This document shows, piece after piece, positions 9,223-64,000 of a DNA stretch of 64,000 nt (position 1 is its first letter; the number at the start of each line of letters is the position of its first letter). Made by a program: the position numbers and the translations under genes. The notes under the pieces are model-generated. The model was not told the origin of the DNA. It ran no database searches and was given only the letters and a program-made list of their open reading frames with translations. The stretch lies in assembly GCA_030704615.1 (NCBI GenBank), contig CM060734.1, forward strand, positions 38,750,001 to 38,814,000. The letters run 5' to 3'. Origin of the DNA: Takakia lepidozioides. Its lineage: Eukaryota; Plantae; Bryophyta.

Positions 9223-9470
9223 GGAAGATAATAGGAATAATGTAAGAACTTAATGCAAGCGCGTCAGGACTGACACCCGTACCGCCGGTTCTTCGCCTCC
9301 GGCAGACATCGAAAGGCAGCCGGCTGGGCTCGGTCAATCCCTCCCCACCCCCGCCCTCATCCCATCGGCGTCGTCGCCCCCTGCGTCGTCATTCTGCGAC
9401 ACCAGTCCGCCGCTTCCAGCAGTCCGCCAGTTCCCTGTAACCCCCGCCCCGGGTTCAACCATCACCCCCA
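9223..9470 (+). repeat. Left terminal inverted repeat, unique GC-rich part
   Basis: Reverse complement of ~23805-24077, apart from a few substitutions and two short indels. Confidence 0.93.
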
Positions 9471-14800: not shown

Positions 14801-15230
14801 GCCAAATCTGAAGGAAGGGCTTATTGTGAAGCTCTGTGGCACAAAGCTCGGGACCATTCATGGAGGTCTTCACATGTTGATGAAATCGGAACTTCCAGAT
14901 ATTGATGCAGAGGAGGAAGTTGTGAATCTAGCAGAGCCTACGGAGTGCTCAGCATCATCCCGGCGTGGTCGGCAGGAGCCATCGGATGTTTCATCAATTG
15001 AATCTGAGATGAAGTCCCTGTCGCTTCTTGGCAATGAGAGTGAAACAATGCGCAAACATTTGCTTGCCGAGCTTCGTTGTGTTCGTGGGAGGCTGTCCAC
15101 TTTACAAGTTAGAATCGACAAAGGTCTGTTGCACCCTCTTCAAGCAGTTCCATTCATAAAAAATGATGATGGAAACAACATGTCCCTTGCCAGGAAAGTA
15201 GATTTTGTAGACCGGTTCCGTAGTAAGTGA
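11830..15230 (+). CDS. MULE DDE transposase with SWIM zinc finger; 4 exons (11830-12203, 12314-13028, 13142-13341, 14084-15230), ~811 aa
   Basis: Motifs KRGCTCSF, D1 (SCDATFGTN), D2 (VVDDADAE), CxxH (CLWHVRRAW), E (TNAAIESWH) and SWIM (CDC..GNLCKH). GT-AG introns give a continuous 2436-nt frame with no stops seen. The start codon is tentative. Confidence 0.9.
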
Positions 15231-21712: not shown

Positions 21713-23034
21713 GACAAAAGAAAAAGCTGACAGAAGAGAAGAGAAGAGCAAGAGCAAGAAAAGACAAGACAAGAAAAGACCAAGACCAAGAGAATTCCGA
21801 AGAACGCACAACAGGGAGCACGCACAACAAGAAGTGCAGGAAGAATATGAAGGCTGCGAGAAGGGGAAAACTGAACAATGATCAAAGAACGAAGAACGAA
21901 GCTAGCTAGATGTCACCCGTAAGGCACGTCGGTTAAGCGAAAGACGGCGGTTCATTAAAATCTGGCGGCTTGCAATCAATTATATCCGCACTGACTCACA
22001 CGTGTATGAGTTGCAATCCCGGTGTCACCCGGAATAGCGGAGTGTAACCCGTAACCCTACACTTGTGAGCGCGACAAACCGGCCGTTACTCGAATGCCAG
22101 GCACGTCGAGTGTAACCCTCCGTCAGGTACCCAGATATGATGTAACCCTTCGTCACAACCTCATGTACCCCTAGTCTATGTGACTCCCGAACACAACATC
22201 GATGTAACCCTGTCATATCAAACCATTAGTATGCAACCTCCAGGTAAACATGGTCAATGTAATGCCCCACCCATGTAACCCTAGCCTATGTGGCTCCGCG
22301 AGTGCAACATCCACGTAACCCATCAAACATGTCAACCCCATCTAAACCTCCATTACTAAACCGTCTACCAAGCTAGCATGTATTGAGAAAGAAAACACCG
22401 TGTAACCCCTTGTGTGTAACCATACCACACGTGAGGTAGTCATATAAACCATCAGACATGTAACCGGTTGACAGTGCTTGCAAAACACGCATGATTCGAT
22501 ACGTATTGCATCCATAATAGCGATGAGTAGGCTGCCCCGGCTGGTGTGTGAACAAAAGATACACGAGAGGAGAGTGAATGGGCACCCCGTCAAATGAGCG
22601 GCTGCTTGCATGGCTAGACCGAAAGAAACAAAACCCTTTCCTAATGCGGATCTTAGGAATACCATAGCCATCGGGGACGGTGACAAAACAACAAGAATGA
22701 CATTGAGAAAGAAAAAGAATAGAGACAACCGTATCAATCGTAGAGAAAACCGTGGTAATAAATTTGACGGATCGTTGCGCTGAAAGCGTTGTCTTGTATG
22801 TTGCTGGGATGACGATACTGAACTGAATGAACTACAAATCTTTCACATTGATGTGTGAAGCCGATTGGGCACCATGGGAATTGCAGAAAGCTGATGCCCC
22901 AAAGCAAAAAAACGAGCGAGCTAAGAATCTGGAAACGGATGGAGAGAGCAAATTAGGGTTTCGGCCTCTATTTAAACCTCCATTCGGCCGTCGGATAGTT
23001 TACACGTGTATGATGTACACGAGGCGGTGTTACT

Positions 23035-23805
23035 GAGGGTTACATGGTGGTGAGGGTTACAGAGGGTCAGAGAGGGTTACATGGAGTGAGGGTTACATAC
23101 GGGTGAGGGTGACACTCTGCGGTGTTACAGAGGGTTACATGGTGGTGAGGGTTACAAAGGGTCACAGAGGGTTACATGGGTTACAGAGGGTTACATAAGG
23201 GGTGAGGACGACACTCTACGGTGTTATAGAGGGTTACATAGGTTACAGAGCCACAGAGGGTTTGTGAGGGTTACATGGAGTGAGGGTTACATGGTGGCGA
23301 GGGTGACACTTTGCGGTGTTACAGAGGGTTACATGGAGGTAAGGGTTACACCTGGTGAGGGATATAGAGGGTCACAGAGGGTTACATGGAGTGAGGGTTA
23401 CATGGTGGTGAGGGTTACAGAGGGTCAGAGAGGGTTACATGGAATGAGGGTTACATACGGGTGAGGGTGACACTCTGCGGTGTTACAGAGGGTTACATGG
23501 TGGTGAGGGTTACATGGGTTACAGAGGGTTACATGGAGTGAGGGTTACATAAGGGTGAGGGCGACACTCTGCGGTGTTACAAAGGGTTACATAGGGTTAC
23601 ATGGGTTGCAAAGTGTTACAGAGGGTTACATGTAGTGAGGGTTACATAGGGGTGGGGGTGACACTCTGCGGTGTTATAGAGGGTTACATGGGTTACAGAG
23701 GGTTACATGGTGGTGAGGGTTACAGAGGGTCATGGGGTTATATGGGTTACAGAGGGTTACATGGTAATGTGGGTTACACTCGGCGGAGTTACAGAGGGTT
23801 ACATG
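23035..23805 (+). repeat. Right subterminal GGGTTACA tandem array, inverted relative to the left array
   Basis: Dense gggttaca motifs with the unit GGGTGACACTCTGCGGTGTTACAGAG, the reverse complement of the left-array unit. Confidence 0.93.
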
Positions 23806-24077
23806 GGGGTGATGGTTGAACCCGGGCGGGGGCTACAGGGAACTGGCGGACTGCTGGAAGCGGCGGACTGGTGTCGCAGAACGACGACGCAGGGGGCGAC
23901 GACGCGCCTGGGGCGACGACGCCGATGGGATGAGGGCGGGGGTGGGGAGGGATTGACCGAGCCCAGCCGGCTGCCTTTCGATGTCTGCCGGAGGCGAAGA
24001 ACCGGCGGTACGGGTGTCAGGGCTGGACCGTCCTGACGTGCTTGCATTAAGTTCTTACATTATTCCTATTATCTTCC
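23805..24077 (-). repeat. Right terminal inverted repeat
   Basis: Reverse complement of 9223-9470, followed by TSD gcacgatac. Confidence 0.93.
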
Positions 24078-25925: not shown

Positions 25926-27657
25926 ATGGAGAACTCCGGCCTATCCACCATGGCCAATTTAGACCCCTTGGCTGCGTTAGCCAGTGATACAGATGCGCCT
26001 TCGTTTGGTGTGGAGCAGCTGAAGCATCTTTTTAGGGAGCAGCAAAGGTTTCTTGATTATTTCTTCAAGAATCTTGACTACGAGCAGGTCAGTTATATCG
26101 CCCATTTATTGAACTAAGCGGATTCTAATGACTAGGGGTCGACCGGTTCTAGTTCCATGTTTAGCACACTGATACTTCTGGAATGCACTGCTAGATGTTT
26201 GTTGAGAAACTCTCTGTCTCTGTCTGTCTCTTGGTTTTCTTGGAGATAACTGTCTTTTGTTCTAAGCTCTATTATAAATGTCGCAGGTTTGCCTTATTCA
26301 CTCAATCTGAACAAACTTTTGTTGGGGCTGGAGGCCGAACAGGTACAAGCATTTACCCAGCTCTGCCTCGATACCAAGGGTGTGATTTTCTTCTCAGGAG
26401 TTGGAAAGAGCGGATTCATTGCCCAGAAAACTGCACAGACTTTAGTCTCGACAGGCACAAAGGCTGTCTTTCTGTCTCCTACCGATGCATTACATGGTGA
26501 TATAGGCATCGTGGGGCCCAAGGACACCCTGGTTCTCTTCAGCAAAAGTGGGGCCACAGAAGAGCTCAGTAAACTGGTGCCATGTGCGCGTGCAAAAGGG
26601 GCATACCTTGTCGGAGTCTCCTCCCTCAAGAACTCAAACCTCATGAAACTTTGTGACATGCATGTGTATTTGCCACTAGAGAGAGAGCTCTGCCCATTCG
26701 ATTTGGCTCCAGTAACATCAACTGCAATCCAAATGCTCTTTGGAGACACCGTTGCAATTGCACTGATGCAGGCAAAGAATCTGACACGTGAGCAGTATGC
26801 ACTGAACCATCCGGCTGGCCGCATTGGCAAACGTCTAATTTTCAGAGTGAGTGTCATCCACTTCCTGCTACTACTTTGTCTTTCCCCTGCTCTTCCTCAC
26901 TGAGATTGTCACAAGCAGGTCTCTTTAGCTCTGTGAGGGCCACAGAGCTTCAGCATGGCAAAACTCCAAATGTAATGAGCCCATTCTCTATGTCCCTATT
27001 TTGATTCTTCGCATTCGTACAATACCTCAGGTTTGAATTTCCCCTGACATATTCAGGCAAAATTTTAGGCCTTCCATGTGGAAACCAGCCTCTATTGTTG
27101 GAACTGCCACAATGAAATGCCAGTGAAGATTCATGCAGTTCCATGGATAGCTGCAGGTTCAAGATGTGATGAAAGTAGGGGATGAGCTCCCTCTGTGCAA
27201 AGAGAGTGACTTAATTATGGAGCAACTTGTGGAGCTGAGTGCTAAGGGCTGCGGGTGTCTCATTGTAGTTGATGGATACCGCCGCCTGCTGGGCACCTTC
27301 ACTGATGGTGATCTGAGGCGTACACTCAACACCAACAGGGAGGGCATCTTTCATCTCACAGTTGGGGAAATGTGTAACCGGTATGGATCCTGATTCCACT
27401 TTCTGGGAGGTAGGGGTGGACACTTAGACACAGATATATTGACTATACGTTGGCTAATTCCCTCTTGTTGCACCATTAATTTGTGAATCAATTTCAGGTC
27501 ACCAAGATCAATTACGGCAAATGCCATGGCAGTTGATGCCATGCAAAAGATGGAAGCACCTCCATCCCCTGTCACCTTTTTGCCTGTGATCGACGACTTC
27601 AACAAAGTTGTCATTGGCCTCATTTCTCTCCATGGCCTTGTATCTGCTGGTTTGTGA
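25926..27657 (+). CDS. SETH3: Arabinose-5-phosphate isomerase (KpsF/GutQ family, SIS + 2 CBS domains); 4 exons (25926-26087, 26343-26846, 27157-27380, 27498-27657), ~349 aa
   Basis: [47 protein letters not shown] and the CBS motif [10 protein letters not shown]; ends [12 protein letters not shown] introns are in frame (1050 nt). Confidence 0.93.
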
Positions 27658-28220: not shown

Positions 28221-31200
28221 CTACCAAGCTTCAACTGGGGTTTGACTTGGTAAACATCCGAAGCCTTTCTCGTAGAGGGAGCCATCACTTCTGATTCGGT
28301 ACAACCCTGAGTCTTTGACAGCAGGTAGTCCCTTCCCAACTGACTTGCTATGTTGGTGGCTATGATGCTGATACTTGTGAGAAGCCTTCTCCAAACCCCT
28401 GTTTACACTTGATTGATGACCCCCAGACACCACACTCTCCCTTCCCCCACTGCGGCTTCTTCGAGAAGAGGTGTGGCCAGCTGCAAGCAAACTTGACCCA
28501 CCTCGTCTGAGAGCTTTGCCTGACCTTTTACTAGCACGATGAGAGAGATGGGTGGCAGTGCCCAATGCAGCTCGAGCCACGCTATCCACTGCAGCATCTC
28601 GTGTAGAGCCAGCCTTCATAGCTTGTTTGTTCAAGTACAAAATGTGGGGAGTCAGCCCAGTAACAAGTTTTCGAAGAGGTTCATCACCAAGGTTTCTATG
28701 AAGGGCATTGCCAAGGAGGTTAAGGGCCTGCACAGAACTGTAGTTTGCAGCCAACTGGCCAATAGACTTGGATGTAGTCAGCTTGTTGATGCTGAGATCC
28801 AAGAAATTCAGCTTCAGTAGGCGATGCAGCCCTTCAATCTCGCTGATCTTGTTTCCTGCCAGGTTAAGCTCCCTTAGGGAACTGCAGTTGCCGAGACCTG
28901 AAAAATAGCACAAGATGAGGTGAGCAAAATTTAGACATCAGAGTTTTGTGAAGCACGACCGTCACCAGCGCTCAACTACTTTGAGACTAAGCAAAGGTAA
29001 TACTTGGGAGACAAGAAAATACCATGCAATAATCCTTGAAATATCCCGTGGATCAGAACCCCTGTACATAAACTAAATAGTCACAATCGCGGCATGGCAG
29101 GCACAGCTAAAAATCATTTAGATCCATGATCTGAAACAGCAAATCAGTCTGCCTCACCTCCTCACCACGACTAAGAAACAACCATCAATGACAAAATTAT
29201 GAATGGAGAACACAACATACCATGTCCAATCCGGGAGAGGCGATTGAATGACAAGTTAAGCACGCGCAGACGAGTGAGTTCTCGAAGCCCTTCGATTACC
29301 GCAATCTTGTTGTGTGAGAGATCCAGTGAGTGCAGACTTCTTGGAAGACATCCAGGAACTATGCGCACTGAAGACACACATCTTCACTCAGTATACACAC
29401 CATAACCACGTGTACATATAACGCAGGAGAGATGATGGCTTCTGCAAAATGTTGAACAAAATCAAACCAATACCTCACAAACCCTGAGATTGGTGAAGCC
29501 TCCTCCTGAGGGGCTCTCTAGGTGATGGTCTAGGTAACATCTCCCACCATCGAAGTGGGCAAACTGTTGTTTGACACTGTATGCAGAACCTATATAATAC
29601 TAGAATATGCCATCATACTAATATCTGGTAAACCGATAACAAGGTGTAAGTGCTAGCATTCCAGTGTGACGCAATACAATCAAACAACCTATAGCAACCA
29701 AACTGAGGCTTACCTATAGCATTTCCTGAGAGGTTCAAGCTGTTCAAGCTGTAGAGAAATCCAAGAGGTGGAACAGTTTTCAACCCCACACTTGCAAAAT
29801 TTATTACTGAGGATGAGGAATTCACAGCACGAGCCATCATGCTTGCCATTTCAACATCTCCATCCATTAGCGGATCACCATGGTGCTCCTTGTGCTCAAC
29901 TAGCCCAGCTCCATCTGCATGCAGCTGATCAGCTGACCATGATTTCATGCTGGAAAAGGAAATTGCTTGTGCTGCAGCTGGGTCTGATCCTTCACCTGCC
30001 TTAGATTCCATTTCCATGTCTTCATCAACAGCTGTTGCCACAATGTCAATACTCCTCAGCCACTCCTCCACATGGCTGAGATCAGATTTTGCAAGATTCA
30101 AATATTTCAATTCCTTTCCTTTACCCAGTGTAGACATTCTTCTGGAAGGGGGCACAGCAAGAGGTTGCACAACCTGAGACAGACTTGCACTGTTCTCAGA
30201 CTTGATTTCTCCTTCCTCCAGATCAACAGCCTTGCTTGCCCCAGAGGTATCCACAAATAGCACTGCATCCTTCATAGGAGAAGCCCCATTTGATTCCATC
30301 TCATACTGAACTGGGGGAAGGCCTTTCAAAAACACCCTGGAAATTCCACCACTGCAACATTCAATATCCGTGCCATAGCCCGTGACTGGATTTGACATTG
30401 CTCCCTCACCAGGCTTGGAAGTATGAGTTGTCATCCCCTTCATGTTCTTCACATCCCGGTGGATATTCCGATGTGTAGCAAGAAATACTCTCCACCAGGG
30501 TTTGCACTTCTGCAATGATAACTCTTGCTTGGAAAACTTGACATCAAGTATCATCTCATTCCCATCCCGGAGAGTGCTTTCGGAGTGTGGACTGTTCTGG
30601 ATAGCAATGCCTGCTTTCAACAGCTGACTGTTTGAATCCTTGCTGCTGCGACCTGCAGTGGAGCCACTATGACAGGACTCTGAAATCACCAAGTTCCCTG
30701 TTAGGGTGATTGCCATCTCGCTCAAGCGCCCTTCACTGCGTGTGTCTTCTATTCCAATATTTTCGGACTGGTGACTTGAATGATGGTGTGGAAGAAACAT
30801 TGGACTGCATGCCAGTCCTAGATCTTGTGCATTATAGAGTCCTGGATCACTGACATAGTCACCACAGATTTCTCCATCTGAGAAGTGTTGACACCCCCCC
30901 GCATCAGACCTTGAAGCATCGTTAGATTGAGTTTCATAGTATTTGACAGTCTCATTGTCCAGAAGCTGAACTGAAGCCCCATCTTCTCCAGCAAGTTCTG
31001 CGCTTCGTTCTGACAATTCCCTCAACTCTGCTGTACCTGCATGATATATAGTTCCCTTAGACTACACTTTCCATAAATATGAAGAGTACATGCACTGCCA
31101 AATACATGCACAGTATGCAGTACACCAGTGCTGTGCTTGACGCCTTACAACTTCTCCTGTCCCTTATTAATCCGAGGAAACAGACAAATATTATCTCACC

Positions 31201-37185: not shown

Positions 37186-39177
37186 TCACCAATAGTCCCC
37201 ACAAGAACAAACACCCTCTTGGAAGTGGTGGAACCGGTTGGCATCCCGTAAAACAACCGGTCGCCCAACAATCTTTGAGATGAATTTCATGGCGGTGTGG
37301 CAGTCACCACACACCCGAAGGTTTTTTATCACATGAATAGGCATCCCAGGGGACGTGCTGATGAGCCCATAAGCAATGGCCAGCTTCTCACTGTGGTAAC
37401 AAAGAGAAAGTTCCTTTTGTTCCTCCTCCACATCATGCAATATAAAGCGCGTGTCGGGCACATATCCAGCCTCCTTCATCTGGCCACACAAAATCTTTAG
37501 CTCAGCATGGATTTCCTCAATTTGTGGGTGTATTCTGTCATCTACAAAGAATGCATGCACGCGGCTGTTGACCTCAATGCAGCTGCAACCTGCCTCCTTT
37601 CTAACGCCTCTGTCCACCATCAATTTTCTCACCTTTGCTTTATCATCCCACCTGCCAGCTGCAGCATATATGTTAGATAAAAGCACATAAGCTGCAGGGT
37701 GCTCCGGATCCCGCTTGAGTACGAATTGGGCCACACGTTCTGCTACCTCCACATCAGCATGAATTCTGCAAGCTCCAAGCAAGGCCCTCCACACCCCAGC
37801 ATCTGGTTTGATGGGCATGTTGTTAACAAAGTCCTCTGCTTTGTGGAATTGCCCTGCACGGCCAAGTAGATCCACCATGCAGCCAAAATGCTCGACAGTA
37901 GGTGTGAGGCCATAATCTTGACTCATAGACCCGAAGTAACGGCAGCCTTCATCCACTAGGCCCACATGGCTGCATGCAGAGAGAACCGAAATCAAGGTGA
38001 TGCCATCCGGCTTCAAGCCTTCCTTTTGCATTAATGCAAATAGTTGGAGGACCTCCCTACCACACCCATGATGAGCATATCCTGCCATCATCACATTCCA
38101 TGACACCACGTCTCGTTGAACCATTTTGTCAAACACTTGACGAGCATCCTTTATGGACCCACATTTGGCATACGTGCCAACAAGGGCATTCTCCAAATTA
38201 ATATAAGACACGATTCCAGCTTTCATAACGTCAACATGAACCTGCTTGCCCCTTTCTAGGGCTCCTAGATTGGCACAGGCATTGAAAACACAGATAAACG
38301 TGACCCTGTCGGGTATTACCCCTTCCAGTCGCATTTGCTCATAGATTCTGAGAGCCCCTTCACTATGCCCACACTGAGCATATCCTGCGATCATAGCACT
38401 CCACGAGACCGTATCTCGATAAGACATTTTGTCGAAGACTTGCTGAGCGTCCTTTACACTCCCACATTTACAATACATGTGAACTAGGCTGGTATCCAAA
38501 AAAATGTCTGACGCACTTCCAGTTTCAATGAATTCAGTGTGGACCCTCTTACCCCTATCCAGGGCTCCTAGGGTGGCACAAGCATTGAGAGCGGTAGTGT
38601 ATGTGACCTTCCCGGGCCTCATGCCTTCTTGCTGCATTTGCTCGTACAGTCTGAAAGCCTCCTCGGCCTGCCCATGCGCGATATATCCTGCCATTATCAG
38701 AGTCCAAATGTGCAGATCTCGTTTTGGCATTGCCTCAAACACCTGACGTGCATCCACCATGCTCCCACACTTGGTATACATGTTGACAAGGGTATTGACT
38801 ACACAAATGTTTGGCTTGAATGCACTTCGGATGATGTGGGCATGAACTTGCTTTCCCTCTTCCAGGGCTTTCATCTTGATGCACCCCTGCAAGAGACAAA
38901 CATAAATATTGGAATCTGCTCCAGCGCCTCGTTGGTCCAGAATGTGAAGTGCCTCTTCCAATCTTCCATCCTTACACAGTGTGCGAACATCTGCACGAGT
39001 AGCGAAAGTAATTTTGTCGATTTCCTCTCCTGGCCTTCCTTTAAAACTGGTGGTGGTCGTGCTCACCCGACCGCCAGTCCCAAGTCTTAATGCTTGTACA
39101 TATTTCACAGAAGAGCTCCTCATTAAGACAACCTGTTCACTAAGGTTGAGACATTGAAACATAAAACCTTCGGCCAC
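37186..39177 (-). CDS. PLS-class pentatricopeptide repeat protein with E and DYW deaminase domains (organellar C-to-U RNA editing factor)
   Basis: P/L/S repeats ([18 protein letters not shown]), E domain ([16 protein letters not shown]), DYW domain with HSEKLA, CGDCH and terminal CSCGDYW. A possible upstream exon (39565-39397) would extend the targeting peptide. Confidence 0.95.
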
Positions 39178-42900: not shown

Positions 42901-45900
42901 TTTGCCACATGGGATAGCCATGAGCAAGTGTGAATAACAGATATGTTACACCTGCAGATAGTGATGCCATATTGGATATATATTGTTATGTACCTGCAAG
43001 TGCGAAAGAAGCTTTAGCCATTGTAGTCGCACACTTTGACTTCCTCACTTCGGAGTCTCTCAGACTTTCATATTTTGAGAACAATCTCTAGCTAAGCTCT
43101 GCCACTTCTGGCATGAACAGGTTCTGACAGTGGATCAGAAGGTATCGTTTGAGTACCATGGCACTAACTACACGTTTAGTGTTGTTGGAACGCTGGTAGA
43201 AGGCCAGTTGGAGAAGACCACACGTGGTATGCTGACTAAAAATACCCACTTCGTGTTTGAGACAGCCAGCAACTCAGGCATTAAGGTCAGTATTCTTGCA
43301 GCTCTTACATTTTGTCTTTCTATGAACCATCTCTGTTCTATCTTATTTTTAGTTCTGGTTAAGGATGATATGCTGTTCCAAATAGAAAGTGTGCCTGTTT
43401 TGATGAGAGGAACTTTGCCCCACATCTTCACCCTCAAAACTTCTGTGACATTAATTGTGGTACAAAACTTGATCCTTAACTCTCATTGATCACCACACGT
43501 CTTTTGGAATTCTCATGTCATCCTTGCGCTGGCGGTCTCTTTTGATGCAAGGATGACAGAGTTCCAGGGCAGGGATTGTCTGATGTTTAGATTGGTATAG
43601 AATGGTGCTAAATCTGGGTTATTAAAAGTGTGTCGGTAAAGGCTAGTCTTAAATCTGGGTTTCGAAGTGGGTTTGTGCTTACGAGGCTGTCCTAGTCGAG
43701 CTTAACCAGTTTTGGTGATGGGCAGGGCCCATTCATTTGTAAATGGTAGTGCAAATCTTGATGAATGAAATTTGTCAGAAGCAGTAAAACTGTGCTCTTG
43801 TATAACGAGTAAGGGCTTTGCTTCAACTATTGTGACCTATTGTGTACCTATAGAAGGAACTGATTACGAAACCCAACAGCTATGGTGGCACAAAGGTCAG
43901 CATTTACCCCATGCAACTGGCAGTCTGTGGTTGTTCTGGGCCAGTTTGCTTGGCTCACGGCTTCAATGAGATGAACTTGATATCTACTCCGGAATTTGTC
44001 TAACACTGAATTTGTAACCAGGGTCTTGTGAGTTCAATGTTGGAACAAGGCTATTACATTAATTGCAGACTAATTTTGACTTTCTTATGGTGCAGATTGT
44101 GAATCAACAGGGAGGGCAAACCAATAACTTGTTCAAGGCGAAGGACTTCAACTTCCAAAAGTTGGGGATAGGTGGTCTGGATGCTGAATTTGCTGACATT
44201 TTTCGACGAGCATTTGCTTCAAGAATCTTCCCGCCCCATGTTATTGCCAAGTAAGTTGCACAGTCTACCATATGTGCATGCAGTATGTATCTTGCAGGAT
44301 TGCCTGATAGTGGTATCCTCGTGTGATCATAAGCCAGACATGTCACTGTCAGGGTACAACAATTGTAGGTACGGCTGAACATTCACCAAATCCGCTTTTC
44401 ATAGCTTTGTTTGAGATCAATGATCCCTTTGTTCACTTCTGGTGCCTGATATCATTGGGTAGAACAAGATTAGGAAATAACGAATTTAAATGAAAAATGT
44501 TTATTGACAGAGGGCTCAGAGAGATGAGATATATAATACGACTATTACTCAGTGCAGGCATCTAATGCATAATGTGCAGTTCCGGATCCCTAGCAAATTA
44601 CTGACATGGAGGTAACGATGTATTTATGCACATTACACTCATCCAGACAGCAAGTATTTGTGTTGTTCGTCTGATGGATGTTCTCTTCGTGGGATAAATG
44701 TAGGTTGGGGATCCCACATGTGAAGGGGCTTCTGCTATATGGCCCCCCTGGTACAGGAAAAACTCTTATTGCTCGACAAATTGGCAAAATGCTCAATGGG
44801 CGTGAACCCAAGGTAGAGTTGTTGGGTTGAATGTGAAGCGGTGTGAGTTTACTGCTGTAGCAGACCTCTTTTTCATGTATGTTGTCATGTGTCCAATTTA
44901 TTCTGCTACAAAGGTCATTAAGACATGGGTTGATAGCTCAAACAGCCAAATTAGATCTCAGGTCCCTTCAGTATCATCCCTTTAGGTCCCTCAAGTTAGA
45001 TTATTTTCTATTGCTCTACATGCTAGAAGGAACTTATGTTGTGTGCTGGTGCTTGCACTGTAAAGGGCCGTGGAGTGGTGAAATGGCAATACTTTTGTGT
45101 TGATGACCTTATCTTTGTATCAGTTTTACCCCTGTGCAGGTTGTGAATGGACCTGAAGTCCTCAGCAAGTTTGTGGGAGAGACTGAGAAGAATGTGCGAG
45201 ATCTTTTTGCAGATGCTGAAATCGATCAGAAGGAACGGGGTAAGTCATTGTGGATGCCACTGTTTGCTCCTGTATGTGGGTGGATTGGTTTTTCTTGTTG
45301 TGACATCTGTGGTTTGCAGATGAATGGGAATCTGTTGGCCATAACCTCAATGCAGGACTCTGGCTTCACCTCATGTGGCTCCAGTCCTCTGATCTGGGTC
45401 TACCAAAGGACCATTATGTGACACAAGCCAGACTTACACTGTTGACCTTCCTGTTGTGCCTGAGGCAGGGGTGCATGTCCTGAGTACTAATGCTGAACCT
45501 AAACTAATCTTTCACTGTCAGGGTTCTCCCTACACTAAAGTTCTGTTCCTTCTTTTCAAGAGCGTTAGAATCTAAGGAAGAGATCGTTCTGGATGAGGTA
45601 ATCTGCAACTGCAGGAGTAAGGTTTGCAGCCATAGCCTTAACCAGGGCGAAAGGGTGGCATTAGCTTCTGATAAAATTTTGCTCGCTTACTTTGTCAAAG
45701 ATTGGACTTAACCTTTTCAGCAGGCGGCATTGTGTTTCTTTCAAAAGTGGAAAAAATCCAGGCCTGCCATTTCCTAATGTTTTGCAACAATTCCTTCCAG
45801 TTCCCATGATGAGTCCAGCTACAAACATTGGAAGAGAGTCTAGAAACAACTAGACAAACGTGAAATTTGAGGTTAATAGGAGTGAAATATGACTCATCGC

Positions 45901-54293: not shown

Positions 54294-55035
54294 TGTGGCG
54301 TGACCACTATACAGATAACAAACTACTTTGTAGTTGCCCATGAATTCAATGCGTAGTACGGTAGGAGGTCATCGCCGTCTATGGGATGTATCTTCCTTAG
54401 TTGCAACCTGATATACTCCATAACATGCGCGTGTGTGTTATTTAGTGACATGTTCATGCAACGGGAGTGGGCCGTGGGATATTGAGGAATATCAATTCTG
54501 TCGGGTATTTGGGTTGTCGTGCACCTAAGCATCGTGCCACAACATACATCGTTCTCCAACCACACTTCCTAGCATATAGTCCTAGAAAGCCACACCACAA
54601 TGATACGGAAATGGTGAAAAGAGGAGAAACCACTCTATCACGTTATATAAGTCAAGCCAATGGCACATTTGCTAAAGGACTCCACCATACAGACCTCACC
54701 CACTCTCCATCTCAAGTACTAGAGCTATGGCGGCGAGAGAGGCCTCGGGAGGCTCGACTAGAAGAAGACGAGCTTGCCTACGTCTCACATGGAGATAACC
54801 TCTCCACATCCCAAGTGAGGTTCGCCACCTCACTTGGCACATGGAACCAAATGAAGTCCCAATGCCAACAAAATACAAATATAAATGTATAATGTCCTAA
54901 TTAGCTAGAAATAACTATTTCTAACTAATCACAAACAAAACCATGACAGCTGTCATGCACCTAAGCATCGTGCCACAACATACATCGCTGTCCAACCACA
55001 CTTCCTAGCATATAGTCCTAGAAAGCCACGCCACA
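54294..55035 (-). repeat. 3' LTR (742 bp)
   Basis: Bounded by the inverted termini TGTGGCGTG...CACGCCACA (TG...CA rule). Preceded on the minus strand by a G-rich polypurine tract (plus-strand cgccccccta, ~55038-55047). Confidence 0.8.
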
Positions 55036-55292
55036 ATCGCCCCCCTAGCTGGTGATTAGGTCACTCTAACACCGGATAGCTTGCAAGTATCCACCCCAAT
55101 AAGATCATCGCTTGGTCTTCAATCGCACAAGTCCCAACACATGAAGTCGATAGATCAAGAGGCCGGGTGCAAACGTAGCCCTATCGTTAGTCGCCTTCAT
55201 GCAATCCATGATCTTCAGTTGAGTATCCATAGCATTGAAACCCCACTAGCTAGACCTTGGATCACTTGTCCGCCTCACCATTGTCATGCCCA

Positions 55293-55445
55293 CTACCTCT
55301 GTCCAAGGCATCGTGGACACAACCATTCTCCGATAGGAACCTCCTCAAGTGGCGGTGTCAAGCATCCCATGTGCCACCCCCTTCAACATTTGTCACACAC
55401 CAACATGGTTGCGACACCACCAGCATGCCCACATAGCATGCAACG
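55293..55445 (-). other. PHD finger (C4HC3) at the C-terminus of the integrase
   Basis: CMLCGHAGGVATMLVCDKC*RGWHMGCLTPPLEEVPIGEWLCPRC, read through one TGA at 55383. Confidence 0.9.
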
Positions 55446-58400
55446 CAACCCTGCAGGTACCACTGCAAGGTTAGGATCTATCCTCCCATCCACATGTGGA
55501 AGGTGACATGGCGCACAATTGCGCACATGGTCCTTCCATACCATGCCATCTCGATCCTCCAGAATCAACACTCCTGAAGGCAACACCTCCCTGACCCTTA
55601 GAATCACACGTCCTGCGGTGATATCCAAGGTCGTAGGTGTTGTCTGCTGCAGATACACATAGTCCCCAGGGTGGAAACGCCGAACACTTGGCGGATATCC
55701 CCCTCCACGTATAGTGCCGTACCTCAATGTGTCTCGGTGTTGGGCAATAGCAAGGTTCTCAAAAGCCATAGGCATGACTCTCTTGAACAACTCTGCCCGT
55801 TAGGCACATGCTTGTGTCCACACATCCGGATCATCAAGGTTCAGAACTATTGCAGCCTCCCTGCGAATAGATGCAGGCAAATCCGGCTCTCGGCCGAAGA
55901 GAAGAAAGTAAGATGAGATGGAGGCAAGTGAAGCTTGTTTGCTGAACCTATAGCCCATAGCTAGCCAAGGCAGTTGAAGGTCCCAATCTCCTAGGTGTTC
56001 TTTCTGCAAACCGTACTTGCGCAAACCTCTCTTGACTGTCTGAACAACTCTCTCCGCCAAGCCATCAGCCTGGGGATGATCCTGAGAAGTAGTGTGGTGA
56101 TCTATGAAGGCTTGCTCACATAAAGCCTGAAACTCCCCCAAGAACTCTCTCCCCTGGTCCGTGAGTACCTCGGCTGGAGCACAAAAATGGCTAAGCACTC
56201 GATCTAAGAATGCATACGCAACCCCCTCACTTGCCTTGTCAGGCAATGCCACCAGTTCAATCCATTTGGAGAAGTGTTCCACCATCACTAGCACATACTT
56301 GTTGTGGCGAATCGTCAATGGCAATGGGCCTGCGAAGTCAAGACTCCAACGATAGCCCAAACCCATAATGGGTAAAGGATGCAATTGTGGAGTAGGGGCG
56401 TTGAAAGAAACCCGCACTCTATCACACACCATGCACCTTGCCACTAACTGTTGCACATCCGTGTGCATGTCTTGCCATCAATACTGCCCTTGCAGCAAAC
56501 TATGAGTGCGCCGCACCCCAAAATATCCCAACTCCTCATGGGCATGGCGTACCAATCGCGCTCGTTGTGTTGGATGAGGCACAATCCTCACTTGTCCATC
56601 CTCCCATACCCGAAGTAGGTGAGTCCCCTCCCACTTGAACCTCTTGGCTCGTTGTAAGACCCGATCCCTCTCCTTAGCAGTCACACTGGCTGCTGTCTCT
56701 CCGGTACGAAGGTATGCCCCCATTGTTGCATCTTCATGCACATCCTTAGCACCACCAAACTCCTCACTAATCTCTGGATCATCATGCACGCTATCTACAT
56801 GACCAATCGCATGGGATGGACCAGCTTGAGCTCCCATTGCTAGAATGCACAAAAAGGCCGATGCATGCCATCCTGGCACCATCTCCTCATCCGTCTCACC
56901 ATGCCACCGAGCTCCAGTATCATCATGCTCGCTCGTGCATGGATTACGACTCAATCCATCTGCATCCCGATTGACAATACCGGCTCGATGCACCACCTGG
57001 AAATCGTACTCTTGAAGCATAAGTGCCCACCGTGCAAGCTTCACTGTAAGCTTGTCTGACTCCATCAACCACTTCAATGGCTAGTGATCTGTGACAAGGA
57101 TGAAGATATTGTCATAGAGGTAGCATCTGAAATGTGTCACTGCCCATACCGCAGCTAGACACTTCTCTTCATAGGAACTATACTTCGCCTCGGCATCATT
57201 GTTCGAGCCGCTAGCATATGCCACTACGAACTCTCTTCCTTTATCATCTACCTATGTGAGCACTGCTCCAATCCCCATCATACTCCAATCCGTATGTAGC
57301 TGGAAAGGCGAATAGGCCGCCTCAGAATAGGTGCAGAAGTCAATCGAGCCTTGAGTTCCTCAAAGGCTTCCTCCTGCTCCTCCTCCCACTGCCACTCCTG
57401 ACCCACCTTGGTCAACTTGGCAAGAGCATTTGCAATGCTGCTAAATCCCTTGACAAACCGTTGATAGTAGTTTGCCAATCCCATGAAAGCACGAACTCTG
57501 CTCACATCCATGGGGCGTGGAATGCATGCAATGGCCTCCACCTTTGTCTATTGAACACCCAATCCTCCAGGGTATATCATATGGCCCAGATACTCAATCT
57601 GATTGTGGAAGAACTTGCACTTTCCGGGGTGCAGTTTCAACCCGTGCGCTCTCAAGCGCTCAAACACCACCTGAAGGTGTCTCTCATGCTCCTCAACCGT
57701 AGCACTAAAGACGATGATGTCATCAATATAGCACCGGACGAAGTCTAGCCCCGCGAGAATCCTATCCATGACCCTTTGAAACTCTGCAGGAGCATTCTTC
57801 AACCCAAACGGTAAGAACCACCATTGGTACAAACAATCTTTCCCATGTTGGTTAATCCCCCAGAATGCCGTCTTTTGCTTGTCAGCCTCTTTGATTGGCA
57901 ACTGGTGGTAACCAGATCGCAAGTCCAATGTGCTAAACACCTTTGCATGCCCAATAGCATCAAAGATCTCCTCTGGAGTTGGCATGGCATATCTATCGGA
58001 CTTAGTCTGACGGTTCACAGGGCAATAGTCCCCACACATCCTTCTTTTTGTCCAATTGCCATAGATATCCTTCTTAGCTGGCATCACCATTGCCGAGGCA
58101 TACTCCCCGCCTGACAACTCCACCAATCCAGCTTCGAACAACTCCATAGTCCTGGATCAATGACCTCTCCATGTCACTATACCGGTAGGGCCTTCAAAAG
58201 ATTGGCGTGTCACTTGTCAAATCAATACGAATCTCCTGACCCTTCAAACTCCCCAAATCCTTCAAACCGAAGGCAAAGCAATTCCTATAAGCCCTTAGAA
58301 ATCGCTGGATCCTCCGTCTCTCTCATTTGGTGACTGTAGGTCCAACATCTGGTTCCCAATTGTCCTCAGTGACTGCAACCTTGGGTACACCAGGCTTAGA

Positions 58401-58799
58401 GGTAGGAGACGAATCCTTTGATTGCTAGATAGCAACCTCTTGGGCCTTGTCCGCCCAATCTGACTATGGCGTAGCCTCCACTTGTTCCGCCATAGCCACC
58501 TTAGAACATCCTCTGAGCAAGAAACATTCTCAACCTCTTCAAAAACCTTGGTCACCTTAGCCTCCAACTGATCCTCAGTCCATGGCTCTCCCCACTCCTC
58601 ATACTGCTGTTTGAGAGATCCAATGACTCTCTCTTTGCGTATCTCATCCCACATCTGCCATGGGTGTTTGCAACCCACGATCCTGTGCTCGCCCCCCACT
58701 CACTGCCTCAAATCGTCCCGGTTGGCAGGGAAGATGCACCATCCAATGGGAGTGCAGAAGTAGCCATCAATGCTTGCAATCTTCGTTGCTCATCCATGC

Positions 58800-59750
58800 A
58801 CAAGCCAATTATCCATGTCAAGCAATTTAGATCCATTGCTTGACCCAACACTTGGCGGCGTGATGCCTCTGACAGAGCTGGCACATCTGTAGTGCCGGTG
58901 GCAAATCCCATTGCCCGCTTTCGCTCATCCGCATTGGGCTCCACCAATTGTTGTAGCACACTGTCCCAAATCAACCCAGGACCATTGTCTCGGAAAGCAT
59001 GAGACGAGGGAAAGCTCATGAGCGTAGGCAAGGCCGCACGTGGCTGCCCCACTCGATTGACCACTGCTAGCGGTGGACGATCATCATGTCGCACTCTCTG
59101 TGGTTGCCTCCCTTAGTCCAAAATGCCCTCAACTGTGAGATTGGGTGGCCGATGAATGGAATCGTATGCTCTCTTGAGGAGCTCTGGTGGTGCAAGATTG
59201 GTCCACCACAATCGAGGTTGATGCGCGCGTGATCCCACCGCTGCTGCATCCAATAGCACCGCCAATCCAATCCAAGACCGCACCTGATGCACACTGGCCA
59301 TAACCCTGGCCCGAGAATCCCCCATAAGATGAACATTCTCCAAGATATAGCCTAGAGGTTGCACTTGCCTCGTCTGCAAGTCCCGCAACACTTGCAACAT
59401 CTCCCAAAACAAATGCGATCGTGCATCATGCAAGCCATTCCCATGACCTGCGGGAGAGTGTCTTTGGCAAGGCCATCCGGCTATCACCAAGTCAATGGGA
59501 CCATGCTGCTGCAAATCATCCGCCCCCAGCAAGGTAATGTCTGATGGCAAGGCCTTTTGATACCCTTGAACTACTGAAAGAGGCAACAACTCAGGATACC
59601 GGTGTGTGAGCAAGGCAATGTGGCGCATGAAAATACGCCGAGCAATCTCATCCTTCTCCACATACAAGTACTTGCGTACTTTAATCCCTGCTTGCAACAC
59701 TCCTGCAAACCCAATGCTCATGCCTCCAAACAGGTCTAGCAAACAAATCC
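58800..59750 (-). other. C5 cytosine DNA methyltransferase domain (DNMT3/DRM-like) within the retrotransposon polyprotein
   Basis: Motifs I (LLDLFGGMSIG), II (YVEKD), IV with catalytic PC (GPIDLVIAGWPCQ), VI (ILENV), VIII (DAAAVGSRAHQPRLWWTNL), IX (ERKRAMGF..GTTDV) and X (RRQVLGQAM), in canonical order. One in-frame TAA at 59113. Confidence 0.9.
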
Positions 59751-61188
59751 CTGAGTCAGGTGGTTGCCAGGTAATGGGCACTGTGTCCAAAGGAGCTAAC
59801 TCAGGAGGTCTAGGTGATGTCACTGAACTCCCCTCACTCACCAATGGAAAGGCCTCCCGCCATGCTTGGTACACACACTTGCCTACTACTCGATGCAAAT
59901 TCCCAACTGTACCCCACAGTGGAATATGCACAGGCACATGAGGAAGCAAATCAGCCTCGTATGCCAATTGTTTGTCCTCATCAGATGATGGCCTATCATC
60001 TGCATGGCTATTGTCTTCCAAGAGCTCACCACCCCAAGCCACCACCCCTGAGAATGCAGCCAATGTGGGCATCATGTTCATATGATCCACCGCTACATTC
60101 CCAATAAACCGCACTGGGAGCAGTGCACGTCGGCCATCTCCTGACTGCCATTCCGGCCTGTAGGATGTCGTTTCCTCCCAAAAGTCCAAAGTGAATCCCA
60201 TGGGGTATAACACCGTCTCACCAACAAGCACATCATAAGACATCGCATCTGTAACAATGGCTTTAGCTCTCATGACTGAGCCGTCCGTAGGATGATCCGG
60301 CTGCAATCGAATGAAGAGCTCATGACGTGTAATCCCTCGTGCCTTCCCTGAACCGCCCAAATATGTTTGAATTTGGAAAAGACAAGGCTCCAAATCCGCC
60401 TCTGTAAGGCCCAAGCATGCAATTGCTAATCTTCCCAACATCAATGGCTGTGCTCCCGAGTCCAACAAGACCCGTAGTGGCCTATACCTCCTCCCGGCTG
60501 GGCCACCCAACTGAAACACACCATCCTGATTGTCCACCAGGACTACCCCAGGAGTCACCATACTACGCTCAATGGCTAGTCTAGCTGGCAATTCCTGCAA
60601 CCTTGCAGCTGCCGCTTGCCATGGTGCAGCTGTGGCTGTATTCACCCTTGAGTCCATGACATCCATGCACTGCACATTATCCGTTATCCCCGCAGATAAT
60701 GCCGATGCATCACCACTCTCACAGAGTCTAGCTGCTAGTCTGAACACAGCAGCTGGCCGAATCCCCGGCATTGCAATGGTCATCGCAGAAAACAATGGAG
60801 CTTGGCAAACCGCCGTAGCCGCCCCCAACAATGTACTGGCTGCACCCTGCTTTGCAGCACCACCCATTGGCATTTCCCGAGCCACACCAACTCTCCCCAC
60901 TGGTACTCGTGGCTCTATCTCTGACACACTTGGGTGAGCGGGTACCATCGATGGCGTAGTTGGCACTATCTCAGCCAATATGAAATACTGTGGAAGCCTT
61001 GTCTGTCGACTTGCTTCCCCCTTTTGTGGATCAAAATCCACATCTGCTCCTTTTGGCTCAGGAGCACGCGTTGCTGCTTGAGTGACAACAGCTGCAGAGT
61101 CCACATGCAATGGTCCAGCAAGTGCGGCTCCACACATGAAGCCCATATCAATCTGGTCTTCCCTAGGCATAGGAGGTTGTGCAGGCAA

Positions 61189-64000
61189 CGACGCAATGGC
61201 GTGAGCGTTGCACGTGAGCGCGCGAGCGTACGCTCACGCAAGAGTGACGTGGCGTGAGCGTACGCTCACGCCAGCTGACGTGGCGTGAGCCTGCACACAC
61301 GCTGACGTGGCGTGAGCGTCATGTCAGCATGCTGATGTGGCGGTAAATGATGACGTGGCACTGTCCGTCAAACTGCCACGTCAGCATTAACATGCGCCGC
61401 CTATAACCGTGGATGGTCCTATTACCGTGGAATTAATGCAGGGAATCTTGCCTAAATAGAATCAAGACGAGCGTTGAGGCCTACAATTGCAGCATCCAAC
61501 ATTGTGCAATTACAAATGCTTGTTTCACTTTTACAATTACGAAGACGACAAAATATCCTCACAAAGTGTGCGCCATAAAGGCTGCCACGAGAAGACTTCC
61601 TCCCTCCTCAAATAACAATGAGAGTTATGATCATCTTCAAAAGATGATTGTAGTGCATAGCGACAGCAAGACATGTAGACTTCGAACGGTGCAATGACAA
61701 ATGTGCACTACCTAAAAGTTGTCACTCAGACCTCACTCCGTATAGTTGGAGGCCATATCATTGCACAGCCGACGAATTGATGTGAATTACACATTTCAAA
61801 TCATGGTCATCCACATATCACATTACATAGTTCATGCTACCCATGTGTTGTATCCCGCTGCAAAAGAGTATCGACCTCGTTGAAACTCATAGTGGCCTGG
61901 TGAATGAAGTTGTCACGTTTGGGATCGCAAACCATCCTCCTCAAAAATATGAAATACAAATGTTTGCAGGGTATGAATTTACCTCTCTTGCCCAAACTGG
62001 TTGATAGCATATTCACAAAATCAGGACATGTGCAATTGGGGAAATTGGAAACCGTGATGTCGTAGGTCCTGTCATGAACAGCAGATGTGGAAGTGATGAT
62101 TGTGAATACCCGACCATATCCTGGATCGGGTACTTCCGTGGTGCTTCCGACACGAGCTTGGAGCATTCTTGCGGACTCCACTTTGCCAAAGTGTTCAGCG
62201 GTTGGAGGGAAACGCCGAACGAGCTTTCCATCTCGTTTGGTTGGCCACAAGTCAGGATTTGCCGGGGGGACCCGGGAGGACGCAGAAGTAGTAGCACATG
62301 CATGGAGTTGGGGTTGTCTCGCAAGGGAAAAACCTGCCTCCTCCAGCATTTCAATCTCCTGAAAGCTGAGATGTGTTCCCACCTTCACGGGCCAAACGGT
62401 TGGAGGAGATGGCTTCATCACTACGGAAGGACGCACAGTTCCATGCACACATCTGGCACAATCATCTGCGCAGAACCAGAACTTGTGGTTCTTGGCTTCT
62501 GGTTGACCGTATGGACGCATCAAGCCCGTGAAAGTCGGAGCAGGAGTTCGGGCACCACCTCTGGATATAGATGAAGTGCACTTCTCGAAATTAGTTGCCC
62601 TGATCGCTGTACATTTCACACGAGACCCGACACTTGTGCGTTCTATGTGCCAAACGTGGTCGGGGCATGCGGACTCAAGCACATCAAGGGGGTTGTTTCT
62701 CTCCTGCACCATTTCAGTGGCACGGTTTGATGCTGGAGCTTGCCGTCGTGTTGGAGGTTCCTCCACAATGGAGGTTCCGGACATGGAGCTGTCATGCAGG
62801 GGAACACGAGGCTTCGAGAAGTTATCACGGTCTGCCTGTGGGAATCTGAATCCGAACCAGGTGGAGTGTTCAATTTCCTCTTACAGGAGCCGAATCTCTC
62901 CTCCCCTTCAAGATGTGGAACTCTAGAAACAAGTGGCGTTCCCTGGGCATACATGCTCACCGCCCGTGCTATCTTGATTGGATCCCCAGATCTGTTTGCA
63001 GCACGCAACATCAACTCCCATTTGTCCGGACCCTTGCCACCAACCCCACCTCGTAAGAAATCACGGTATCGGGTTTGTTGTTGCAAGGCACGTATCAAAT
63101 CATCTGTTGTTGCCACATACAAATCCCGACCTCGTTTCCCAGACTGCTGCAACCATGCATTGTGCACAGTTTCTGCCAAATTGCAAGATGGCATGTCCGC
63201 CATTTCCTCAATGGACATGTTCTGCAAAGAGGATAACCACACTTCAGAATAGTGCACAGGAAACAACATAAAGAAAGCAATGAGTCAAAAATATGGAAAG
63301 CAAATGTATGAATAAAGCATGAAATAGAAGCCTCGTACCATTGTCATGGCTGCTCCCCACTGTCTATACCGGAAGTGCCAAAACGCCAGCCAATCTTCCA
63401 ATGCTCTCATACTCTCAAGTGATGCAGCTCCAGAAGAGAACCACCAGGCACGAATTGTCTGGAACAAAGTGTCCGCCTCCTTCATTGTTCTAGCATCTTT
63501 GTACTCTTTGCACAATTTACGGTGCTGAGTCTGCATCTCTGGTTTGATGTCCGACTTTGTATGTTTTTCCAGAGATTGTGTCCAATGGAATAGACATGTA
63601 CGCTCTCTTCCTGGCATAGGCACTTTTGGGTCGCCCGATCCGAAGACAATACGAACAGCATTGAAATTTGCTTGAGCACTATCCGCCATGAAACCTGCGA
63701 AATTTGGAGATGGCAGCCCATGGCAGCCCATGACACGTATCAGGGAATTCCACATGAGCTTCTGGGATTCCGTATCCTCGGATTGCATGTCACAAACTGC
63801 AATTGTCATAACTCGTTGGTACACTGGATCGTAGACATGACAAGCCATTGTCGTCCAATCCTTCACTCGTTTTACATGATCAAACATAAGAAAACAGTTC
63901 TGCAAGTCCCCAGTCTTCTGCATCCGCTTCACGAGGCTAACCCCACTGCCCTCCCCAACAGTCGACATTTTGAAAAGAAAAACTTTGATGGCACCTTGAC
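61189..64000 (-). mobile_element. Second Mutator-like element (different family), one end only, continuing beyond the window
   Basis: Gypsy coding sequence stops abruptly at ~61188 and is replaced by repeated (TGACG)TGGCGTGAGCG motifs (61197-61385), then a transposase gene. The exact terminus is not determinable. Confidence 0.75.
61837..64000 (-). pseudogene. MULE-type DDE transposase with C-terminal SWIM finger, 5'-truncated by the window; intron 63222-63338; 1-bp frameshift at ~62835
   Basis: LMFDHVKRV (D1), FMADSAQANF (D2), CLFHW (CxxH), NLAETVHNAW (E) and SWIM CTCPDF..CKHLYF. The frame changes between ORFs 62643..63269 and 61837..62784. Confidence 0.82.

Follow-up and report, generated by a model that had tools for sequence, protein, structure and literature searches.

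A streptophyte Ty3/gypsy family with a DNMT3-like methyltransferase at the end of its Gag-protease reading frame, probably ahead of a leaky stop codon

Does a retrotransposon of a land plant possess a DNA methyltransferase of its own, and if so, where does the domain sit in the polyprotein and what would it do for the element? The question is raised by a decayed Ty3/gypsy copy, truncated at its 5′ end, on the minus strand at positions 54515-61160 of the window, that is, the whole 64-kb stretch of DNA analysed here. From the letters alone, a sequence-only reading had proposed that a DNMT3-like cytosine methyltransferase is fused in frame between protease and reverse transcriptase (RT) inside pol. 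Our analysis favors, at a probability of roughly 0.6, a streptophyte Ty3/gypsy family in which the DNMT3-like domain ends the Gag-protease ORF, is followed by a conserved and likely leaky stop codon, would enter the particle at a Gag-level dose and would likely methylate the element's own new cDNA.

The stop-to-stop ORF at 59116-61233 on the minus strand contains the protease motif VLLDSGAQ (60453-60476, minus strand) and the C5-methyltransferase motifs I (LDLFGG), II (YVEKD), IV (GWPCQ), VI (ENV) and VIII (AHQPRLWWTNL), uninterrupted as had been described; it measures 706 residues, and the earlier length of 691 was not reproduced. Its first ~24 codons are assigned to the terminal repeats of the neighboring element, because Gag-family homology begins only near 61160. 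Motifs IX-X indeed continue in the same frame past a single TAA (59113-59115), beyond which RRQVLGQAMD is read, and the RT lies downstream. The profile search that had been called for yielded PF00145, RVT_1 and rve at E-values of 5.2e-11, 1.8e-32 and 1.8e-13, respectively. The window copy gave no Pfam protease match, and its protease aligns to relatives that match Asp_protease_2 or gag-asp_proteas (P0027; P0351 and P0283; also by tblastn). RNase H, located after the RT, has a Pfam match below the cut-off. The order protease-RT-RNase H-integrase, together with the DDE integrase, is that of Ty3/gypsy elements. A PHD finger at the integrase C-terminus, overlooked by the sequence-only reading, is shared by further loci, among them L034 and L068.

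The copy is dead, being both broken and truncated. Its RT is in a different frame from the DNMT domain, and the RT-RNase H-integrase region contains frameshifts and at least six stops. Full-length relatives align to the window by tblastn only from their own residues 431-467, and the same queries found no gag elsewhere in the 64 kb; the capsid and zinc knuckle are absent because of the 5′ truncation. At this side, a separate minus-strand element (61170-64000), which is likely Mutator-like, replaces or interrupts the gypsy 5′ end, with a step in depth near 61222. It occurs in high copy number, has palindromic subterminal repeats of the GACGTGGC type, gives a weak SWIM match and abuts the truncated gag. 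On the 3′ side, the flanking DNA is single-copy as far as about 54539.

Table 1. Positions of the parts of the retrotransposon copy and of other features in the window
Feature	Position	Strand	Evidence
Nitrilase-family exon	5998-6594	-	
Degenerate tandem-repeat arrays, related, in opposite orientation	9440-11350; 23020-23820		80% over 1.1 kb
DNA-transposon-like ORFs	12258-15227; 16193-19346	+; -	Ulp1 protease match in one (E=1e-4)
Arabinose-5-phosphate isomerase gene (SIS-CBS)	26000-27650	+	
LRR protein gene	28224-31061	-	
PPR-E-DYW editing factor gene	37189-39177	-	
CDC48/NSF-like exon	about 43079-43486	+	
Separate repetitive DNA-transposon-like element	61170-64000	-	SWIM E=0.0047 (below cut-off); palindromic subterminal repeats
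ORF1 3′ part: post-zinc-knuckle gag linker, aspartic protease, DNMT motifs I-VIII	59116-61160	-	ORF, Pfam, tblastn
Aspartic protease (LLDSGA)	60100-60590	-	Motif; alignment to relatives' protease
DNMT3-like C5 cytosine methyltransferase with motifs I-X; TAA at 59113-59115 interrupts it	58770-59750	-	PF00145, PDB, Foldseek, motif table
ORF1 tail past DNMT, HPW motif	58428-58770	-	Sequence and relatives
Conserved stop and CAA (TAG CAA TCA), in RT frame; putative leaky ORF1/ORF2 stop	58419-58427	-	Relatives, sibling contigs
Reverse transcriptase and connection, frameshifted, with stops	57300-58343	-	RVT_1 E=1.8e-32
RNase H, with stops	56970-57308	-	Sequence, relatives, tblastn
DDE integrase (H2C2; core LDFAG / TDQG / AERV), with stops	55740-56590	-	rve E=1.8e-13
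PHD finger, integrase C-terminus, broken by TGA 55383-55385	55296-55445	-	PF00628 E=2.3e-10, X read at stop
Polypurine-tract-like run, immediately ahead of repeat B1	55038-55051	-	Same place in 7 related loci
Terminal repeat B1, end CATGACA	54951-55037	-	83/87 bases identical to B2
Terminal repeat A2, start TGTCATG 2 bases past B1	54603-54948	-	Position and terminal motif; analogy with L034, L060, L068, L073
Terminal repeat B2; 3′ end of element CACGACA	54515-54601	-	Repeat comparison; single-copy contig covers flank to 54539

The host is a land plant, as had been supposed. The neighboring arabinose-5-phosphate isomerase exon shares 92%, 91%, 87% and 76% identity with its counterparts of a Sphagnum cluster, Diphasiastrum, Physcomitrium and Chara, respectively; in a 45-row tree of this 173-residue exon it is sister to the mosses (support 98/87), with a Diphasiastrum paralogue next, and a PPR-E-DYW gene is present in addition. 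An early-branching moss is the likely host, and on this one exon a clubmoss is a less probable alternative. The element is abundant and highly repetitive in the same organism: runs of this organism gave 40,537 contigs over 10.5 kb that include the neighboring repeat, and a stretch of 171 bases within gave 405, a summed contig depth that indicates repetitiveness and does not equal copy number.

Structural and sequence comparisons bear out the assignment to the DNMT3 type. With the TAA read as X, the best sequence matches in the PDB are DNMT3A (E=3e-12), DNMT3B and DNMT3C, whereas HaeIII, DRM2 and HhaI fall far behind, with E-values of about 5e-4 to 2e-3. An AlphaFold model built from 40 sequences has a pLDDT of 91.6, and a Foldseek search with it returned DNMT3A/B at E=5e-20 and about 21% identity. 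The methyltransferase fold and the motifs I, II, IV, VI, VIII and X are present in linear order; the window copy is interrupted by a stop and is altered in motif VIII, where Gln replaces the first Arg. Only 32 of 54 loci have Arg at this site, and at the position of the TAA relatives in other species read through without a stop. Among those of 59 non-redundant close loci that cover the respective site, the catalytic Cys is conserved in 54 of 56, ENV in 50-55 of 55 and FGG in 55-56 of 56.

The domain is not confined to one broken copy. The DNMT relatives include 34 longer ones, with named sequences in Marchantia, Calypogeia and Sphagnum, at identities of 33-68% (most of them 53-68%); taken together, liverworts and Sphagnum have relatives at 53-69%, and the relatives with a name come from Marchantia polymorpha, M. 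paleacea, Riccia, Calypogeia and Sphagnum. Vascular plants, Physcomitrium and Ceratodon are absent from the named DNMT matches, a weak negative that concerns these matches only. Of 470 metagenome matches that were confirmed, the best 80 served as related loci, and every locus of sufficient length has the domain order gag, zinc knuckle, protease, DNMT, RT, RNase H, integrase and PHD finger. One of these loci, L068, also contains a PPR-DYW gene (18019-19364) that is 65% identical to that of the window and marks the locus as plant host DNA.

The dN/dS ratios across copies, which had been suggested as a check, indicate that the DNMT domain is under purifying selection: 0.11 for the window copy against the main subfamily, and 0.14 and 0.18 between subfamilies, at dS values of 1.7-2.3 that are near saturation. 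These ratios are close to those of both the RT (0.05-0.08) and the protease (0.15-0.26) between subfamilies, as calculated from 7, 4, 1 and 1 loci per subfamily, more distant pairs being saturated. Within subfamilies the DNMT values rise to 0.4-0.6, as expected of decaying copies. Moreover, RT and DNMT distances are correlated (rho 0.54, n=55), with none of 999 permutations reaching as high a value, and all 11 elements of the order protease-DNMT-RT form a single clade in the unrooted RT tree (support 97).

A profile-free search retrieved 245 DNMT clusters at E<=1e-30. The DNMT tree, which is unrooted and contains no host DNMT3 outgroup, splits into a clade of 41 rows with the order protease-DNMT(-RT) and a clade of 109 rows with the order RT-RNase H-DNMT-integrase-PHD. 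The former (FastTree SH support 100) comprises the window copy, the bryophyte sequences, Klebsormidium GAQ93235.1 and Closterium GJP34393.1. The latter accounts for 109 of the 150 tree rows (P0033, P0266, P0268, P0277, P0278 and others), with the DNMT domain between RNase H and integrase and a PHD finger at the end; many of its members have EC or DC in place of PC in motif IV, and no description of this sister clade was found in the literature examined.

Could a fragment of a host DNMT3 have been captured on a single occasion, or a host gene have fused with a retroelement by chance? The window copy is broken and truncated, and host DNMT3 genes, which share the non-rearranged DNMT3-type catalytic domain, occur in non-flowering streptophytes according to the accessible text of PMC6453930. 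However, these host genes have a DUF3444 domain and introns, whereas the DNMT segment here has no introns and no DUF3444 match; the domain occupies the same position in moss, liverwort and algal relatives, is under purifying selection and belongs to an element that is highly repetitive in the same organism. A single capture or chance fusion is refuted by the shared domain order across loci and the purifying selection, and we consider it hardly conceivable. With the same place in the relatives, the selection and the correlated RT and DNMT distances, the earlier view of an integral, selected domain rather than passive gene capture holds, and we are nearly certain that the DNMT3-like domain is integral to the element.

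The position of the domain relative to the RT differs from what had been read. Fifty-one elements span the DNMT-RT junction, and in the close group 39 of 41 have an in-frame stop 22-28 codons before the RT reference start, with CAA as the next codon in nearly every case, whereas the distant subfamily has a conserved stop there in none of 10 and shows an uninterrupted fusion. After removal of duplicates, the stop is found at the junction of 35 of 39 loci, compared to 0.9% per codon elsewhere and 23% in the next highest column; most of these 39 loci come from one subfamily and are thus not independent. The junction stop is common to subfamilies with near-saturated synonymous sites. Sibling contigs of four same-organism runs have no variant at or above 15% at the TAG CAA (58422-58427), whereas the next stop upstream (58464-58466) and single-base indels near 58502, 58692 and 58712 are not shared by many or most of these contigs. 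A programmed frameshift after the DNMT domain was also considered and rejected, as many of the sibling contigs do not share the indels and the frame is intact in related loci. At the protein level, Gag-protease-DNMT proteins of Marchantia and the Calypogeia cluster end 42-44 residues past the HPW motif, and the Sphagnum-type ORF ends at 45. The in-frame fusion inside pol hence does not apply to the window's branch, in which the DNMT domain closes the Gag-protease ORF; P0271, P0403, P0408 and P0029 are uninterrupted DNMT-RT fusions, so that the stop is not family-wide.

Looser contexts of leaky stops follow the consensus CAR-YYA. A stop of the tobacco mosaic virus (TMV) type, in the context CAA-UYA, is read through at about 10% according to the accessible text of PMC2754532. 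In the elements, the hexamer after the stop is CAA-TCA in the window copy only, CAA-CCA in its siblings and L009, and CAA-CCC in the Sphagnum-type family; L064 has no such hexamer. Alternatively, the stop might be a true ORF end, with Pol arising from an mRNA that is separate or spliced, or else through reinitiation, and the DNMT domain still on the Gag side. The imperfect hexamer would be consistent with this, as would an in-frame ATG two codons past the stop in the Sphagnum-type family, which supplies most of the loci; in addition, the Tca2 paper reportedly questions readthrough at a gag-pol stop (PMC2194720). Yet the frame is kept across the stop, CAA is found there in three subfamilies, and the window family and L009 have no ATG ahead of the RT start, and we regard a true ORF end as quite improbable. 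Because the conserved stop and CAA separate DNMT from RT, we propose that the DNMT domain ends a Gag-protease ORF1 and that Pol is quite probably produced by readthrough of the junction stop.

Such a stop predicts a high dose of DNMT per particle. If readthrough occurs about once in ten times, by analogy with TMV, the DNMT domain would be far in excess of RT and integrase; particles would take it up in amounts similar to those of Gag, and the element's own protease might free it. CG methylation of the cDNA would then let a new copy arrive marked like host DNA, and the PHD finger might guide the choice of chromatin. Methylation of the cDNA is rather probably the job of the domain.

A domain of this fold could instead serve mainly as a DNA-binding or shielding protein of the particle, or as a brake on the element. 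A Gag-level dosage would suit a stoichiometric role, and EC stands in place of PC in motif IV of many of the more distant relatives, among them Closterium P0283 and the L068 subfamily. The element shows no self-methylation signature in the form of extra CpG loss; its observed/expected CpG ratio of 0.51, compared to 0.32 in the flanking host DNA, corresponds to a weaker depletion. Moreover, the related KnitGypsy-Dnmt3 gave no methylation in yeast, a result that its authors call inconclusive in the main text of PMC5890265. However, according to the same text, human DNMT3B was likewise negative in this yeast test, and FGG, PCQ and ENV are retained in the window's branch. A shielding or braking role is thus in our view unlikely, and cDNA methylation remains the preferred reading; the DNMT3 domains of SymbioDIRS do methylate CG in yeast (PMC5890265, main text).

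The ends of the element also depart from a canonical gypsy, in which two identical LTRs surround the coding region. The relatives have either A-coding-B-A-B or A-coding-B repeats and hence represent a variant; the complete A-coding-B-A-B form is found in L034, L060, L068 and L073, whereas the window copy retains B1-A2-B2, its 3′ CA end and the polypurine tract, and lacks A1, the 5′ partner of A2. The elements end in TGTCATG..CA(C/T)GACA, and among seven with both ends, five have 4-bp target duplications and two have none. A purine tract precedes B1 in eight of eight, the B1|A2 junction reads CA-NN-TG or a one-base variant, and the end of A2 meets the start of B2 within about 2 nt in eight of eight. 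Priming was compared in the relatives, since the window copy has no A1: of 20 loci, 13 have inside A, about 30 nt beyond a TATA-like box, a 9-16 nt complement to the bases just past A1, and another has a 9-nt complement elsewhere in A; the motif differs between two subfamilies. No tRNA primer site was seen by eye, and the complement within A fits self-priming.

The purine tract and priming-type sites would make B-A the LTR of the cDNA, so that A-coding-B-A-B would be a circular permutation, with the ends joined and the circle cut at the internal B|A. Transcription would start inside A, with self-priming of the Tf1 kind; the resulting linear cDNA, bearing a B-A repeat at each end, would be end-joined to a circle, which the integrase might cut at the internal B|A junction (CA-NN-TG) to give A-coding-B-A-B. 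Several loci have A-coding-B only, such as L007, which has a target duplication; this form would be explicable by a one-LTR circle or by recombination between B1 and B2. The mirror form A-B-A-coding-B, expected from a symmetric two-LTR circle, was not seen among loci with a left end, which means that the step is asymmetric or the circle model incomplete. Unlike the DIRS/Ngaro retroelements, which have a tyrosine recombinase and no target duplication, the elements have an rve integrase and 4-bp duplications, and no recombinase match was found in the ORFs scanned. We give this circular route, with a cut within the LTR, an even chance. From the permuted LTR one would expect a DDE integrase to use a circular intermediate for integration, which is not known to be the accepted route for LTR elements.

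Among known systems, the closest is KnitGypsy-Dnmt3 of Klebsormidium nitens (de Mendoza et al. 2018, PMC5890265), which, according to the main text, likewise has a gypsy polyprotein that includes a DNMT3-related domain encoded without introns, split A-coding-B-A-B repeats of the DIRS kind and purifying selection on the DNMT. The elements differ in the land-plant host and high copy number found here, and in the DNMT, which that text places in the Pol ORF and which is separated from the RT by a stop in the window's branch. The main text of PMC5890265 does not mention readthrough, a PHD finger or Marchantia, nor target duplications or a model of priming or integration, on which its Fig. 4c may add. 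The K. nitens protein GAQ93235.1 (zinc knuckle-protease-DNMT), which may or may not be the published KnitGypsy-Dnmt3 element, belongs to the window's DNMT clade. Of the proposed land-plant lineage, the host stands, whereas a separate land-plant invention does not, given the Klebsormidium and Closterium proteins in the DNMT clade and the shared repeat layout. Based on the common A-coding-B-A-B repeats, the elements are best placed as a land-plant branch of the KnitGypsy-Dnmt3 family, and common descent with the algal element is very probable.

SymbioDIRS-Dnmt3 and SymbioLINE-Dnmt of Symbiodinium are also retrotransposons that carry a C5 methyltransferase, and SymbioDIRS shares the A-coding-B-A-B repeats and has active CG methylases of its own (PMC5890265, main text). 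They are, however, tyrosine-recombinase or LINE elements, in contrast to the DDE integrase, TG..CA ends and 4-bp duplications found here. EpiLTRs and DAM-LTRs (bioRxiv 10.64898/2026.05.21.726589) are similar in being gypsy-like and in combining a methyl writer with a chromatin reader, but according to the accessible text they have a DNMT4-related enzyme with DAM and a chromodomain, compared to the DNMT3-like domain and PHD finger here. The same text names 'streptophytes (Gypsy-DNMT3)', with bryophytes and land plants unmentioned in it. The Tf1/Sushi and Tcn1 chromoviruses (PMC6317226 and PMC2864245, accessible text) share an LTR-derived complement just past the 5′ repeat, with no tRNA primer site seen, and a chromatin reader at the integrase C-terminus; here a PHD finger replaces the chromodomain of chromoviruses (Tcn1/Chlamyvir), for which no match was found, in addition to the DNMT and the split repeats.

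In the accessible text of the literature examined, no report of such elements in bryophytes, or of the stop, PHD finger or ends, was found, and two later papers say only 'streptophytes' in the text accessible; within these bounds, DNMT3-carrying gypsy elements are probably in print only from a green alga. New with respect to the same literature are the stop and CAA that separate DNMT from RT, the PHD finger of the integrase, and the TG..CA ends with 4-bp duplications, a polypurine tract and a self-priming site, which may point to integration from a circle cut within the LTR. DNMT-carrying retrotransposons are thereby extended from one alga to land plants, including the model liverwort Marchantia, and the question of de Mendoza et al. 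of how a transposon benefits from its own cytosine methylase becomes testable with existing methylation mutants. More broadly, and only as a tentative and rather doubtful picture, an old green-lineage gypsy group may reach from streptophyte algae to mosses and liverworts, with DNMT3 at capsid stoichiometry via a leaky stop, chromatin reading by the integrase PHD finger and a two-LTR circle cut inside the LTR. If true, it would provide a natural DDE-integrase retroelement with a circular intermediate and pre-methylated cDNA, beside a large sister group with the DNMT between RNase H and integrase.

Two further observations concern annotation and the company of these elements. Many 'hypothetical proteins' of Marchantia (P0005-P0020, gene models such as Mp_4g09160 and Mp_8g17980) are Gag-protease-DNMT ORFs of the window's family, and such models could inflate the number of host DNMT genes counted for bryophyte genomes. 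In L017 (14986-17700), elements of two DNMT-gypsy subfamilies adjoin each other: a main-subfamily end with B only is followed by RNase H-integrase-PHD and B-A-B of the distant subfamily.
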